Position numbers and translations under genes: made by a program
NCBI GenBank assembly: GCA_963777605.1
Contig: CAVZRV010000013.1
Span: forward strand, 64,001 to 128,000
Direction of reading: 5' to 3'
Source of the DNA: an uncultured Acidobacteriota bacterium
Lineage (GTDB): Bacteria; Acidobacteriota; UBA6911; RPQK01; JAPXNP01
Length of the DNA: 64,000 bases
Shown here: positions 40,498-43,862 of the stretch, piece after piece
Layout of the letters: each line of letters starts with the position of its first letter
Numbering within the stretch: the first letter of the stretch is position 1
Notes under the pieces: model-generated
Told to the model about the DNA's origin: nothing
What the model saw: the letters and a program-made list of their open reading frames with translations, nothing else
Databases searched by the model: none

Positions 40498-41643
40498 CTA
40501 TGGGACAGGACGAGTTTGTGACGGTTTGACTCGGGCGATCAGGAGTGTCTGGTCGTCCCTCTGGGTGACCTCTCCGGTGTATTCGGACACTGCCTGAAGA
40601 ATCATCGACGCGAGGTCTTCTACGGGAAGCTGTCGCTTGGCGACGATCAGGGCCTCCATGCGCTCTTCTCCGAACTGGTTGAGGTCGGGACGCTCCGCTT
40701 CGGTCAGGCCGTCCGTGAAGACGACCAGGAGATCCCCGTTCTGGAGGTCAATGGCCTCTTGCCGGTATGCGGACTCTTCAAACGCTCCCAGCAGCGGCCC
40801 GGTAGGATTGAGCCGCTGAGCCTGGCCGTCCCGGACGAGGAAGGGCGGGCAATGTCCGGCATTGAAGTACTCGAGCCGGCAGGTGGCTGAGTCAAAGACA
40901 CCGTAGAAGAGTGACGCGAACCGATTGCCGTTGTTGCTCTCGCCCATCGACTGGTTGAGGACGTGGGCCAATCGATCGAGTCGGTCCGGGTGGAGCGGTC
41001 CGTTGCTTCGCAGCAATCCCTGCAGGTTGGCCATCAGGAGGGCCGCCGAGATCCCCTTGCCCGAGATATCCCCGACTGCCAGGGAGAGCTTGCCGGGCCA
41101 GAGTTCCAGGTAGTCAAAGTAGTCTCCCCCGATGATTTTGGCGGGCTGACACACCGCGTAGTAATCCATGCCCGGGATCGAGGGTTTGAGCTGGGGAAAG
41201 AGATGGGTTTGGACCTCGGCCGCGATCCGGAGTTGCTCGTTGATGGCGGCATTTTCCTCGCGGAGTCGTTGCAGTTCGAGGTCCTGAAGCACCGTCGTTC
41301 TGAGTGAGTAGGGCTCCCACGGCTTCAGGATGTAGCGGTGCACCTGTCCCTCGTTGATTGCCCCCATCAGGTCCTCGGCTTCGCTGTAGCCGGTGAGGAT
41401 GATGCGGAGCGCCCGCGGCGAAAGAGCCAGCGACTCCCGAAGCAGATCGACACCGCTCATTCCCGGCATCCTCTGGTCGGTGATAATGACCTGGAACGTC
41501 TGCTCTTTCAGCCGCCTGAGCGCTTCTGCGCCTGAGCCGGCCTGGCAGACTTCGAAATCGCCAAGGAAGGTTCGCTTCAGTTTTTGAAGATTGGCCGGTT
41601 CGTCATCGACGACGAGAAGCCGGGGCTTGCTTCCACTCTTCAT
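40498..41643 (-). CDS. Response regulator receiver + PP2C/SpoIIE phosphatase (RsbU-like)
   Basis: VVDDE, TDQRMP, KPW receiver motifs; GGDYFD, GDISGKG, NAGH, TDG, DDQT phosphatase motifs. Confidence 0.93.
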   Translation of the reverse strand: MKSGSKPRLLVVDDEPANLQKLKRTFLGDFEVCQAGSGAEALRRLKEQTFQVIITDQRMPGMSGVDLLRESLALSPRALRIILTGYSEAEDLMGAINEGQVHRYILKPWEPYSLRTTVLQDLELQRLREENAAINEQLRIAAEVQTHLFPQLKPSIPGMDYYAVCQPAKIIGGDYFDYLELWPGKLSLAVGDISGKGISAALLMANLQGLLRSNGPLHPDRLDRLAHVLNQSMGESNNGNRFASLFYGVFDSATCRLEYFNAGHCPPFLVRDGQAQRLNPTGPLLGAFEESAYRQEAIDLQNGDLLVVFTDGLTEAERPDLNQFGEERMEALIVAKRQLPVEDLASMILQAVSEYTGEVTQRDDQTLLIARVKPSQTRPVP

Positions 41644-41676: not shown

Positions 41677-42453
41677 CTAATCCAGGACTTCGATCACGGC
41701 CTGGTCACGGCCGAAGTTGCGCGTCTCGGGCTGGCTGGCGACAACTTCGAGCAGGTATGAACCCGCAGACGGAAGCGGCAGTTGACCGGTGAACACGCTG
41801 ACTTCACCGGAGAATGCCAGCGGGACTTCGGCAACCTTTTTCTCGCTGGAATCATAGATTTGGGCGACCACGTTGATCTTGTCGGCATCCCAGAGCCCAC
41901 CGGGCTCGATCGGGCACCCTCAGGTCATGGTCATCTTTGCCCGGATTGTCGTTTTCGTCCCGGCAGTTAGCTCCCGTCCTTCCTCCGGAGCGAGGATCTC
42001 GACGATGAACCCGTTCAGTTCCAGGATCAGCCCTTCTCCGAGGACATCTTTGCCGGGGACCAGGAGGATGGTCTTGGAACTCGTCTGGACGGCCTGCGGG
42101 TACTCCAGGGGGCCCTCGGCGATGACCTGCACCGGAGTGGGCCGGTGGAGCATGAGCGTGGTCTCGAAGTAGGCCGTTCCCTCCAGGTCGTAGACCGTCC
42201 CATGACGCTCCCGCGGTTGCACCATGATCTTATCGGTGTTCCCGGTTCCCCCCAACTGAAGACCTTTGGCCAGGATCTCACCCGTTTCGAGATCCTTAAT
42301 GGTGACAGAAGCGCCGCCGACGTGTGTTCCAACCACCTTGGCATCACGGGAAACGACACGGACGCGCAGCTTTGTAGGGACCTGTTCGGCGAGTGCCGGC
42401 ACAAGGAGGAGCAGGGTCGCTCCCAGAGCTACTACGAATCTTCGAAATTTCAT
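41677..42453 (-). CDS. Putative secreted selenoprotein (258 aa, Sec at codon 178, U-G-C motif)
   Basis: ORF 41920-42453 ends in TGA. The frame stays open (GCPIEPGGLWDADKINV) into ORF 41677-41871. A SECIS-like hairpin follows the TGA. Confidence 0.8.
41893..41907 (-). other. Putative bacterial SECIS element
   Basis: On the coding strand: UGA-12 nt-GAGCCC-GGU-GGGCUC, a perfect 6-bp stem with G as first loop base, 19 nt after the UGA. Confidence 0.65.
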
Positions 42454-42532: not shown

Positions 42533-43862
42533 ATGAAGTCTCTTCTCGTCCGGGCCGAATCGGGCCACCAACTGGATCGCGTGACCCCGCTGAGCCCTTC
42601 CGACCTGTCCGGTGTGGTCCGCCGAAGTGGCCGCCAGGCCATGGTCGAGAGTTCTTCCCGTCGGTGTTTTCCGGACGCGACCTACCGGGAAGCCGGTGCC
42701 CGCATTGTTCCTGTTGGAAGCACGGGTGACGTTGCTCTGGGAATTCGAAACCTGTCCAGTGAGCCCTTCGAACCGGGGAGTGTCCAGTTGCTGTTCCTTG
42801 ACGCTCCATCAGGACGGCTCGACCGGATGAGCGTTCTCAAGGCAGCCCTTGAAGGTGGAGCCACCCTGATCGATCTGGAGGGAATCAAAGATGCGCAGGG
42901 GAAGCGCCTGGTTGGCCTGGGACCCTATTCCGGGCACGCAGGTGCCTTGAACGGGGCGTGGCTGCTGGGACGCAAGTGGGCGGGAAGGGGACTGATCACC
43001 CCATTGGCCCACTGCCGCCAGGCGAGAGATTTCGCAGATCTCTCGGCAGCCTGTACCGAGTTCCAGCATATCGGCCGGATCATTTCGGACAAGGGGTTTC
43101 CGAGGGAACTCTGTCCGGTGACGATCGGGATCCTGGGCCATGGCCCGGCGGCGAACGGGGTAGTGGAGGTGTTGGAGAACTGGCCCGTGGAGTGGGTTGA
43201 ACCCTCGGCACTCGTCACTGCTCTCCAGACGTGCGGGAGCCGATCCCAGAAAGGTCTACTTGACGGTGTTCGAAGAGAAGCACCTGGTCGAGCGGCTGGA
43301 CGGGAAAGGCTTCGAGCCGCGCGACTATATTGTCCATCCATGGCTGTATCGCAGCCGTTTCGACACCTACCTACCCTGGTTGACTGCTGTGATCAACGCC
43401 GTGTCGTGGGATTCCCGTTACCCCCGTTTCGTAACCTGGGCGGGGTTGGGAGCGCTTGCCGCCCGTCCCGGAGCGATGAAACTGGAGGCTCTGATCGACC
43501 TGCCCGGACACGTCGAGGGATCGATCGAGTGTACCGTTCGGGCAACCGACAGCGAACAGCTGGCTTACCTCTGTGACCCCGTTCGTAAGGAGGTCTGTGA
43601 GAGCATCGAAGGGGACGGGGTTCTGGTCATGGCGAACGGTGAACTGGAAGGGGAACTCCCGGTAGACACTTCCACCTTCCTCAGCGGGAGCCTGAAACCG
43701 TATCTCCCGCAGATTCTGCTGGCCGACTTCGACGAAGGGCTGGAGCGGTCAGGACTTTCCGAAGAGGTCAAGAGAAGCGTTGTCGCCTGTCGCGGCGAGT
43801 TGACTCAGCCATACCGCTACCTGGCGGAGCTGGTTGACCGGTCAGAGGCGTCGGCTCCCTGA
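42533..43862 (+). CDS. Lysine-ketoglutarate reductase/saccharopine dehydrogenase-like (AlaDH/PNT fold) protein, divergent; +1 frameshift at ~43213
   Basis: VESSSRRCFPDATYREAGA, LIDLEGIKD..GKRLV, GHGPAANG, INAVSWDSRYPR, GSIECT, ELPVDTS. Confidence 0.75.

Follow-up and report, generated by a model that had tools for sequence, protein, structure and literature searches.

A gene on the minus strand of the window (the whole 64,000-nucleotide stretch analyzed here, from an uncultured member of the Acidobacteriota) is very probably one intact gene that encodes an exported selenoprotein, as opposed to a broken gene or a pair of genes, and its in-frame UGA at codon 178 is predicted to be decoded as selenocysteine (Sec). 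Judged by comparative criteria, it almost certainly belongs to the class of bacterial selenoprotein genes whose UGA is recoded with the help of SelB and a SECIS element, Sec incorporation being a prediction. The gene, its recoding, and the family rest on the comparison with relatives; the chemistry proposed below is a guess from the motif. The family is widespread, and we could not find it catalogued as a selenoprotein: it is absent from the deep-Sep sequences, from the 2022 list (PMC9312934), and from the accessible parts of the 2026 list (PMC13188914), with the 111 families of BSepDB outside this comparison. The features of the gene are listed in Table 1.

Table 1. Features of the predicted selenoprotein gene in the window
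Feature	Position	Strand	Basis or remarks
Selenoprotein gene, complete	41677..42453	minus	Translation with TGA = U; 258 codons (Sec = codon 178) plus TAG stop at 41677-41679
Predicted Sec-type signal peptide, residues 1-22	42388..42453	minus	Read from the sequence; MKFRRFVVALGATLLLLVPALA, cleavage after ALA and before EQ
Domain 1, residues 25-146, predicted beta-sandwich	42016..42381	minus	AF2; holds most invariant residues; only generic Ig-like fold matches
Domain 2, residues 149-258, predicted Ig/FN3/E-set-like beta-sandwich	41680..42009	minus	AF2 secondary structure
In-frame TGA, codon 178, read as Sec	41920-41922	minus	Column occupied by TGA in 31 distinct relatives as well, by Cys in others
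Upper hairpin of the candidate SECIS, GAGCCC-GGU-GGGCUC	41893-41907	minus	Overlaps codons E183-P-G-G-L187
Possible extended SECIS with lower stem, GGUGCCCG	41884..41918	minus	MFE fold; UGGG-A-UGCC; flanks the upper hairpin

The reading frame and its relatives

Translation of the minus strand reproduced the layout proposed in the first-pass annotation: the ATG at 42453 opens 177 codons that end in ...KMTMT, and the UGA is followed, in the same frame, by 80 codons (GCPIEPGGLWD...) up to the TAG stop, so that the motif around codon 178 reads MT-U-G-C-P-IEPGGLWD. Full-length Cys-containing homologs of ~250 to 290 amino acids align with the read-through protein from end to end. Matches were found in 25 of the 61 related genomes, and all 29 of them carry exactly one in-frame TGA; the 20 loci fetched from these genomes all have U-G-C in this position. 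Among a further set of 80 fetched contigs from named genomes, 14 were TGA forms and 61 were Cys forms, the other 5 being outside the motif used and left out of these counts. The U-G-C motif is found at the TGA in each of the 31 distinct TGA forms, whose frames then stay open for 77 to 91 codons (61 in L038, where the contig ends) and whose tails share 24 to 40 of 80 residues with that of the window. In 20 of these 31 forms, the terminal stop is also TGA, so a single mRNA would use this codon in both senses ~80 codons apart. In a quick tree, the TGA forms cluster phylogenetically, mostly within Acidobacteriota, and the 31 sequences are therefore not independent observations.

The residue that takes the place of the UGA in other members of the family is Cys, as expected in the first-pass annotation. 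It was found in all 55 aligned full-length homologs, with C178, G179, and C180 invariant in the 56 aligned rows, at 65 of the 99 fetched loci, and in 134 of the best 150 of the 819 family representatives, which were selected independently of the motif. Among the remainder of these best 150, 12 have a gap at position 178 (6 of them end exactly at residue 177) and 4 have another residue. The MMCGCP..GGLWD motif that the first-pass annotation ascribed to uncharacterized proteins indeed exists in homologs, such as RMMCGCPLEPGGLW in L109 and L120. The first Cys has probably been exchanged for Sec several times within the family.

The genome encodes the machinery needed for such recoding. Profile searches detected, all above the curated cutoffs, selA (528 bits), selB (354 bits), selD (363 bits), which has an in-frame TGA of its own, and the tRNA-Sec gene selC (70.5 bits, anticodon UCA), the product of which is the only tRNA in the genome that reads TGA. 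Two observations that had been named as potentially refuting, the residue in the homologs and the presence of this machinery, thus came out in favor of a selenoprotein. TGA terminates 1,468 of the 2,455 long frames and is the commonest stop codon of the genome, which makes it a normal stop codon in this organism. Decoding of codon 178 would then follow the standard bacterial route, with SelB delivering Sec-tRNA(Sec) to the UGA.

Could the TGA nevertheless be a true stop, produced by a fresh nonsense mutation or an assembly error, or marking the boundary of two genes, a 177-residue product and a tail that is either untranslated or translated separately? Gene callers do cut the frame there, and the database entries for the product in the window and the three relatives closest to it are proteins of 177 to 178 amino acids; TGA is the genome's most frequent stop; and the window contains other interrupted genes, including the adjoining one at 42533-43862, which looks frameshifted. 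However, this column is also TGA in 31 distinct sequences from other genomes, with identity as low as 43%, which speaks against a read or assembly error. The frame beyond it is open and conserved over the lengths given above without any start codon being required, the homologs are single polypeptides with Cys at this column, the position of the TGA is within a folded domain in the AF2 model, and the codon choice that preserves the hairpin (see below) is specific to the TGA forms. A true stop is accordingly hardly credible. A look-up of sequencing runs for the source listed no RNA run and two DNA runs, with a word share of only 0.10 to 0.14.

The family comprises 819 clusters at 50% identity, mostly from Acidobacteriota, Gemmatimonadota, and Rhodothermota. 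Of the 401 genomes sampled from the phylum, 26 carry a member, 15 of them as TGA forms. Its nearly invariant signature consists of the C-G-C motif and a Trp ten residues further on. In line with its earlier description as uncharacterized, the family is not covered by any Pfam or NCBIfam model: the Pfam scan (E value of up to 1) returned only Big_7, at 13 bits and below its cutoff, and the NCBIfam scan of the protein returned no families. A word-index search of longer proteins detected no fused forms, and an exhaustive search found two proteins, P0242 and P0251, that combine the family with the beta-lactamase-family domain PF00144, in opposite orders. Two such fusions do not suffice for any conclusion, and they may have arisen from the merging of genes during gene calling.

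The hairpin downstream of the UGA

In bacteria, the SECIS is a SelB-binding stem-loop located immediately 3' of the UGA, as described in the accessible part of PMC9312934. The perfect hairpin reported in the first-pass annotation, with a loop G at 19 nt after the UGA, is exact in the sequence; it starts 12 nt past the UGA, and its loop Gs are nt 19 and 20. The stem-loop formed by the E-P-G-G-L codons of the mRNA would recruit SelB with its Sec-tRNA(Sec).

Folding of a single sequence is uninformative here, as the 63-nt stretch (-23.2 kcal/mol) is no more stable than its shuffled versions (mean of -22.5 kcal/mol, z = -0.23; 73 of the 200 equaled or exceeded its stability), and an Rfam scan of positions 41700-42100 (E value of up to 10) gave no match. 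The comparison of relatives is far more telling. All six pairs are retained in 28 of the 31 TGA forms versus 2 of the 64 Cys forms (on average, 5.77 versus 3.55 pairs are kept), and 96.2% of the upper-hairpin cells are paired across the TGA relatives. In L062 and L063, the pair 22-36 is changed on both sides, from G-C to C-G, by a Gln codon combined with the Leu codon CUG. Since E-P-G-G-L is also conserved in the Cys forms, the first and second codon positions are uninformative, and the weight of the argument comes only from the third positions and from the contrast between the Sec and Cys forms. In the TGA forms, the third positions within the stem are nearly fixed (C in 30 of 31 for Pro184 and G in 29 of 31 for Gly186), that of the loop residue Gly185 is free (T11/C6/A8/G6), and other four-fold sites are variable (G8/C19/A3/T1 for Pro181 and C16/A8/G6/T1 for Ala190). 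Synonymous codon choice thus maintains the hairpin only where codon 178 is TGA, as would be expected if the SECIS proposed earlier is real.

Accordingly, the hairpin does not exceed chance in one sequence and, judging from the alignments, far exceeds it once the relatives are compared. Its identification as a candidate SECIS element that is under selection is well supported by this comparison. The inclusion of the extended lower stem in this element is weakly supported: only 76.6% of its cells are paired across the relatives, and several of its pairs are broken in 14 to 20 of the 31 TGA forms.

The apical loop in the bSECISearch model lies 16 to 37 nt downstream of the UGA, and the loop Gs at nt 19 and 20 fall within this range.

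Protein architecture and possible functions

The N terminus reads as a Sec-type signal peptide, in agreement with the earlier suggestion of a secreted protein; this is a prediction by eye, and the AF2 model has a helix at residues 3 to 16 with a lower pLDDT of ~67. The N termini of the homologs are hydrophobic as well. After cleavage, the mature protein would consist of ~236 residues folded into two Ig-like beta-sandwiches. The AF2 model (pLDDT of 92.5) places the TGA codon inside domain 2, with the U178-G-C180-P loop between the strands formed by residues 167 to 176 and 194 to 200, so that the segment U178-G-C180-P-x-E-P-G-G-L-W-D would form an exposed loop of the second domain. Most invariant residues are in domain 1, namely, R32, D37-A38-K39, G46-G47, G71-x-T73, P80, and R83.

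Searches of the PDB with Foldseek and the wide search with VIA-align retrieved only generic Ig/FN3/E-set sandwiches and gave no functional lead; in the latter, residues 148 to 258 matched many unrelated E-set domains with Z scores of 9 to 11.5. The family profile had no match among the PDB sequences at E values of up to 1, and the nearest clusters in the ESM Atlas are all annotated as "hypothetical protein" without a Pfam family. Gene neighborhoods were surveyed at 99 loci from 36 clades (633 neighboring open reading frames within 4.5 kb). The sole recurrent neighbor was an SSF-type sodium:solute symporter, seen at 9 loci in 4 of the 36 clades; no other neighbor recurred across lineages, in which the gene contexts otherwise differ, and no partner reductase was evident. 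In a single genus, the selenoprotein gene is flanked by a LarA-like gene as well.

Our best guess is that the protein presents an extracytoplasmic Sec/Cys loop that serves in redox reactions or in the handling of chalcogens or metals. The motif suggests that the U/C-x-C pair may be a redox-active center outside the cytoplasm, a possibility to which we would give slightly less than an even chance. In such a center, Sec178 would be the attacking nucleophile and Cys180 would resolve it into a selenenylsulfide, with a thiol, a polysulfide, or another chalcogen compound as the substrate. A more ambitious and rather unlikely proposal is that a U/C-G-C loop on an exported Ig-like sandwich is a recurring extracytoplasmic chalcogen module, found here and in DUF1573/OS_HP2, two families between which no sequence link was detected. 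In this family, the module, together with the strongly conserved surface of domain 1, might constitute a new type of periplasmic enzyme that acts on sulfur, selenium, or soft-metal species or a protein that carries them covalently. The domain 1 surface in question comprises R32, D37-A-K39, G-G-T-G-D-T, and P80-x-x-R83.

Recoding might also proceed as proposed while the U/C-G-C loop, instead of being redox active, binds a soft metal or metalloid, such as Cu(I), Hg(II), As(III), or Cd, in a periplasmic chaperone or resistance protein like CopC or CrdA. The E-set domains on which domain 2 superposes do include those of CopC (Z = 9.1) and CrdA (Z = 9.0), besides many others. However, 118 chains reach Z scores of at least 8, so this similarity may reflect only the shared fold, and there is no sequence match to these proteins. 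Metal-handling selenoproteins, including a MerT-like protein, the SO_0444 Cu/Zn efflux transporter (UxC), and MbdU, are found in the accessible parts of the catalogues. In the cultured Roseithermus sacchariphilus (L061), which has a Cys form, the gene is preceded at a distance of 43 nt by a same-strand gene for an ArsR/SmtB-type metalloregulator, and a ZIP transporter is encoded near the gene in L054, but each of these neighbors was seen at a single locus and did not recur in the clade analysis. Further, no more than two ligands are available in the loop, a whole clade has Leu in place of the Met that stands two positions ahead of Sec, and there is no invariant His or Met that could serve as another one. 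Metal binding is a possible function but not a likely one.

SoxY also has an Ig-like sandwich fold, with its carrier Cys in a Gly-rich loop. This likeness brings up the improbable option that the recoded protein is a SoxY-like covalent carrier of sulfur or selenium (as persulfide, thiosulfonate, or selenotrisulfide) for a periplasmic enzyme that oxidizes or reduces these elements. In the Terriglobia Cys forms L068 and L071, the divergently transcribed neighbor encodes a di-heme cytochrome c with subthreshold matches to the thiosulfate dehydrogenases SoxA/TsdA, followed in L071 by a sulfite-oxidase-type Mo enzyme, and at two Gemmatimonadota loci (L058 and L103), the convergent neighbor belongs to DUF3179, which is catalogued as a selenoprotein family. 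Such neighbors, however, are confined to a few related lineages, and the systematic count showed none of them to be repeated between clades. Also, the motif lies within the protein instead of on a C-terminal arm, and neither Pfam nor NCBIfam searches revealed any similarity to SoxY.

Significance and comparison with known selenoproteins

Annotation pipelines routinely split selenoprotein genes, as happened with the four stored fragments mentioned above, and cataloguing the present family would fix many misannotations. The family is large, and the phyla in which it occurs are dominant in soil but have been little studied with regard to selenium; if the chalcogen module exists, it would represent a new type of periplasmic enzyme or carrier in abundant soil bacteria (Acidobacteriota and Gemmatimonadota). 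The candidate SECIS offers a clean case of an RNA signal carried by the synonymous positions of the codons for a conserved peptide, EPGGL, for which the Cys forms provide a natural control of codon choice. The protein also supplies a second Ig-like scaffold with a UGC center for comparison with DUF1573.

The candidate SECIS resembles the classical bacterial elements, such as that of fdhF, in being a stem-loop within the coding region directly after the UGA, with apical-loop Gs ~19 to 20 nt downstream. It differs from them in being very compact, the upper stem having 6 bp and being capped by a GGN loop of 3 nt, and in a lower stem that is poorly conserved.

According to the accessible parts of PMC9312934 and PMC13188914, UGC is the listed Sec motif of the DUF1573 and TlpA/Prx-like redoxin families, and the DUF1573 selenoprotein (OS_HP2, PF07610) is credited there to Zhang and Gladyshev (2007). 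Like the latter, the present protein is an exported Ig-like beta-sandwich in which Sec takes the place of the first Cys of a strand-end C-G-C and is followed by a P-G turn, it comes in Sec and Cys forms, and its candidate SECIS lies in the codons just downstream. Unlike DUF1573, it has a fixed stand-alone architecture of about 250 to 290 amino acids with an N-terminal and a C-terminal sandwich, and the EPGGLWD signature and the invariant Trp ten residues past Sec are specific to the present family.

This likeness might mean that the protein is a very divergent branch of DUF1573/OS_HP2 whose domain 2 is a DUF1573 domain with an altered loop. In addition to the U/C-G-C-(T/P) shared at the end of a beta-strand, three of the loci (L037, L038, and L059) have UGCT instead of UGCP, as in DUF1573; DUF1573 genes containing an in-frame TGA are frequent in the same phylum; and the sole hhalign match lies between the penultimate strands ("LEVLAxDPxxANF" here and "tIxVxSNDPxxP" in DUF1573). 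However, this match between the family alignment A2 and a 20-sequence alignment of DUF1573 has a probability of 1.6%, spans 14 columns, and leaves the motif unaligned. PF07610 itself matched neither the protein (E value of up to 1) nor anything in the genome (E value of up to 0.01), nor did the NCBIfam models match; the spacing from CGC to PG differs (2 versus about 9 to 10 residues); and nothing in DUF1573 corresponds to the conserved domain 1. Descent from DUF1573 is accordingly quite doubtful, and assignment to that family is not supported, no profile-profile similarity having been found over the CGC-bearing domain. The U/C-G-C at the strand end of an Ig-like domain is a resemblance in design, which does not establish homology.

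Assignment to the TlpA/Prx-like redoxins is not supported either, as neither Pfam nor NCBIfam searches produced a match to any AhpC-TSA or thioredoxin model. The UGC-containing TlpA/Prx-like protein (WAxxUGC; cd02966/PF00578) has in common with the present one that it is an exported selenoprotein with a three-residue U-G-C, and the presence of this motif in a redoxin supports the view of UGC as a redox couple. The two proteins differ in their scaffolds, which is a thioredoxin fold in the TlpA/Prx-like protein and, as predicted by AF2, an all-beta Ig-like sandwich in the family described here.

Predicted Sec decoding of an in-frame TGA

The minus-strand frame under study starts with an ATG at position 42453 and runs for 177 codons to an in-frame TGA, past which it stays open for 80 codons until a TAG (see the table). 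The peptide flanking the TGA reads ...IRAKMTMT-U-GCPIEPGGLWDADKI..., and the N-terminus, MKFRRFVVALGATLLLLVPALA|EQ, resembles a Sec-type signal peptide when judged by sequence alone.

The window represents positions 64001-128000 of contig C13 in a 6.73-Mb assembly of 53 contigs (58.8% G+C) that encodes selA (528 bits), selB (354 bits), selD (363 bits, carrying one in-frame TGA), and a tRNA-Sec with the anticodon UCA (70.5 bits). The selD gene lies outside the window, ∼11 kb from the tRNA-Sec gene, and its in-frame TGA makes it a selenoprotein SelD itself. TGA is the commonest stop in this genome, ending 1468 of the 2455 stop-to-stop frames of at least 400 codons, and tRNA-SeC is the only one of the 52 tRNAs found that has a tca anticodon; a reassigned genetic code is therefore excluded.

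Coordinates of the features discussed (window positions, except those on contig C7 of the window's own genome, G000)
Feature	Position	Strand	Remark
Response regulator + PP2C/SpoIIE phosphatase fusion (RsbU-like)	40498-41643	-	Downstream neighbour
Selenoprotein gene	41677-42453	-	258 codons, TGA at codon 178
Terminator TAG	41677-41679	-	
Inverted repeat GAGCCC-GGU-GGGCUC	41893-41907	-	Exact; starts 12 nt past the UGA
In-frame TGA	41920-41922	-	
AlaDh_PNT-like gene, apparently frameshifted	42533-43862	+	Other neighbour
First long ORF of this gene	42533-43576	+	
Second long ORF of this gene	43197-43862	+	
selD	G000:C7:931111-932034		
tRNA-Sec	C7:942802-942896		

Conservation of the TGA and its pairing with Cys

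A protein search with the read-through sequence returned 577 homologues. The three closest ones (88, 79, and 77% identity) appear in the database as proteins of 177-178 residues that end in ...MTMT, i.e., are cut at the same codon, and the full-length homologues (∼250-290 residues) have C-G-C-P at the TGA site in every sequence of two alignments (20/20 in A1 and 55/55 in A2). Six-frame searches found matches in 25 of 61 related genomes, and all 29 matches, extending down to 43% identity, carried exactly one TGA. In each of 20 loci retrieved from these genomes, this TGA supplies the U of U-G-C-(P/T)-x-x-P-G-G-L-W. The best 80 of 187 named genome contigs comprised 14 TGA forms and 61 Cys forms, with the 5 contigs without a motif match left out of both classes. 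The former belong to Acidobacteriota (including Blastocatellia, Pyrinomonadaceae, and Chloracidobacterium) and one member of Thermodesulfobacteriota, the latter to Gemmatimonadota, Terriglobia/Acidoferrales, Rhodothermota, and one member of Bacteroidota; all four metagenome loci were Cys forms. Within a phylum sample of 401 genomes, the gene was present in 26, with the TGA in 15 and without it in 11.

Every one of the 31 distinct TGA forms has 77-91 open codons after the TGA (61 in locus L038, where the contig edge ends the frame), and 24-40 of 80 residues in these tails are identical to those in the window's tail. This set includes L044, from the unpublished genome G018, on which no result depends. 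In 20 of the 31 (L041-L043, L045-L052, L055, L059, L060, L062-L064, L067, L076, and L108), the gene itself also terminates in a TGA, located 79-91 codons past the Sec-TGA, so that one mRNA uses this codon in both senses.

A profile search of 1.84 billion representatives gave 819 hits at E ≤ 1e-3, 537 at 1e-10, and 214 at 1e-30. Among the best 150, picked without use of the motif, position 178 is Cys in 134, a gap in 12 (in 6 of which the sequence stops exactly at residue 177), and another residue in 4; Cys180 is found in 133 and Trp188 in 139. Parsimony on a quick maximum-likelihood tree of 96 sequences (65 Cys, 31 Sec) gave six Sec/Cys changes, and its well-supported branches force at least two. 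Copies labelled Verrucomicrobiia (L093) and Candidatus Saccharimonadales (L114) are near-identical to Acidobacteriota copies, with branch lengths of 0-0.004; these labels probably reflect mis-assignments in binning, not gene transfer.

Selection on the SECIS hairpin

The first-pass annotation had pointed to the in-frame TGA, the open tail, and the hairpin, all of which are present in the sequence, with an exact inverted repeat and loop Gs at nucleotides 19-20 after the UGA. The bSECISearch model is said to apply a 16-37 nt spacing rule and to require a loop G. The minimum free energy of the 63-nt stretch is -23.2 kcal/mol versus -22.5 ± 2.9 for shuffles (z = -0.23; 73 of 200 shuffles were as stable), and no Rfam family matches the hairpin region. 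The hairpin is thus unremarkable alone, and the case rests on comparison. Its stem is encoded by the E-P-G-G-L codons; these residues are conserved in the Cys forms too, which therefore serve as a natural control for selection on the SECIS.

All six pairs are retained in 28 of 31 TGA forms (mean, 5.77) versus 2 of 64 Cys forms (mean, 3.55). In the TGA forms, the four-fold third positions within the stem are nearly fixed (C in 30/31 at Pro184 and G in 29/31 at Gly186), while that of the loop Gly185 is free (T11/C6/A8/G6), and those of Gly179, Pro181, and Ala190, outside the stem, are variable. In L062 and L063, which have Gln for Glu, the outermost pair changes from G-C to C-G jointly with a Leu CUG codon. 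Across relatives, the upper helix is paired at 96.2% and the whole proposed structure at 85.0%, versus 33.6-51.2% for slid controls; the lower stem of the minimum-energy fold (76.6% paired) is a tentative part of the SECIS. The six-pair stem is not preserved in full in three TGA forms (L059, L089, and L118), whose RNA may adopt another fold. These comparisons indicate that the hairpin is selected solely in the forms that need SECIS, i.e., the TGA forms. Bacterial SECIS elements are described, in the 2022 review (PMC9312934), as stem-loops directly 3' of the UGA that are bound by SelB, a description that fits the window hairpin.

The conserved TGA, its pairing with Cys, the Sec machinery, and the TGA-specific hairpin selection bear out the earlier proposal of a selenoprotein. 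Judging by the sequence comparison, this is almost certainly an authentic selenoprotein gene that gene callers have wrongly divided: one gene, whose UGA is predicted to be decoded as Sec via a local SECIS, and whose product is predicted to be exported and has an invariant C-x-C in which Sec and Cys are interchangeable at the first position.

Fold, neighbourhood, and relation to known selenoproteins

AlphaFold2, run on a 56-row alignment, confidently predicts (pLDDT 92.5, pTM 0.84) a signal helix followed by a pair of beta-sandwiches, which span residues ∼25-146 and 149-258. Strands 167-176 and 194-200, both in the second sandwich, are joined by the U-G-C-P-x-E-P-G-G-L-W-D loop, which places the TGA inside a folded domain, and the invariant residues are mostly in the first sandwich (R32, D37-A-K39, G46-G47, G71-x-T73, P80, and R83). 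The protein matches no family in Pfam (Big_7, at 13 bits, is under its cut-off) or NCBIfam and has no relatives in a PDB sequence search; its ESM Atlas clusters are all "hypothetical protein." Two representatives are fused, in opposite orders, to a PF00144 beta-lactamase-family serine-hydrolase domain (P0242, 680 aa, and P0251, 709 aa), which could be a real association or merged gene calls; a word-index search found no fused forms.

The nearest named homologues of the phosphatase carry the label Acidobacteriota, which makes the source organism a probable acidobacterium. The two closest relatives of the phosphatase (87% and 79%) are on contigs whose lengths, 11202 and 4972, equal those of the contigs with the two closest selenoprotein relatives; the gene pair is thus probably syntenic in close kin. 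On the other side, two long overlapping ORFs lie in different frames; the first 136 residues of the first ORF alone match AlaDh_PNT_N, and the second has no match. This looks like one gene with a frameshift near 43200-43250, which could be a true pseudogene or an assembly indel, and agrees with the remark in the first-pass annotation on interrupted genes in the window. Among 99 loci with 633 neighbouring ORFs, sorted into 36 target-protein clades, a sodium:solute symporter (9 loci in 4 clades) was the sole neighbour to recur, and the remaining leads were confined to single or related lineages, such as DUF3179 in two Gemmatimonadota loci. A homologue of the nickel-pincer hydroxyacid isomerase LarA is confined to one genus within the window's order. 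In that genus, the gene is flanked by the LarA-like gene and the symporter in L043, L047, and L048 (partly in L045, L046, L049, L052, and L053), and the symporter gene starts ∼20 nt past the selenoprotein gene on the same strand.

The functional centre is likely to be the U178/C180 pair. Fold searches with Foldseek (E ∼6e-6, TM 0.2-0.35) and VIA-align (best Z 11.5; 118 chains with Z ≥ 8) found only generic Ig/FN3/E-set domains, CopC (9.1), CrdA (9.0), and the sulfite-oxidase C-terminal domain (9.3-9.7) being among the 118 chains; in Roseithermus (L061), a gene for an ArsR/SmtB regulator is located 43 nt upstream. A soft-metal or metalloid binding site in the U178/C180 loop is an unlikely reading. 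In Terriglobia (L068 and L071), neighbouring genes encode a di-haem cytochrome resembling TsdA/SoxA and an enzyme of the sulfite-oxidase type; a SoxY-like covalent sulfur/selenium carrier appears rather improbable. The favoured, albeit tentative, assignment is a redox couple, in which Sec178 would attack as the nucleophile, to be resolved by Cys180 with formation of a selenenylsulfide. Peptides with a C-G-C sequence catalyse disulfide exchange well. The redox couple is favoured because UGC is listed as the Sec motif both of DUF1573 and of a redoxin family with the thioredoxin fold (PMC9312934 and PMC13188914).

The family is absent from the 2022 review's table of 87 families (PMC9312934) and from the examined parts of the 2026 review table (PMC13188914), where nearly every family has a Pfam, NCBIfam, or cd identifier and UGC is listed for DUF1573 and a TlpA-like family only. 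Neither "GGLW" nor "UGCP" occurs in the deep-Sep representative-sequence supplements (PMC12013277), a term search of the Haft preprint on eight families found neither UGC/CGC nor Acidobacteria, and full-text literature searches found no description of the family. It is large, probably novel, in a comparison that excludes BSepDB Table S2 (111 families), and apparently uncatalogued; its Sec is predicted to be inserted by the ordinary bacterial mechanism.

DUF1573 (OS_HP2, PF07610) sequences were taken for comparison from genomes of the same phylum. Their genes were found in 86 of 151 sampled genomes (e.g., L137, L140, L144, L145, and L148), with none seen in the window's own order among the genomes searched; approximately a quarter (∼37, counted by eye) of the 150 matches listed had one in-frame TGA at the SCGCT motif. 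Membership of the window protein in this family was rejected: PF07610 has no matches in the protein or elsewhere in its genome, no NCBIfam match was found, and hhalign gave a probability of 1.6% for an alignment of 14 columns, none of them within the motif. DUF1573/OS_HP2 is nevertheless the nearest known selenoprotein family: like the window protein, it combines an exported Ig-like domain with U/C-G-C at a strand end, followed by P-G, its own motif being S-[U/C]-G-C-T.
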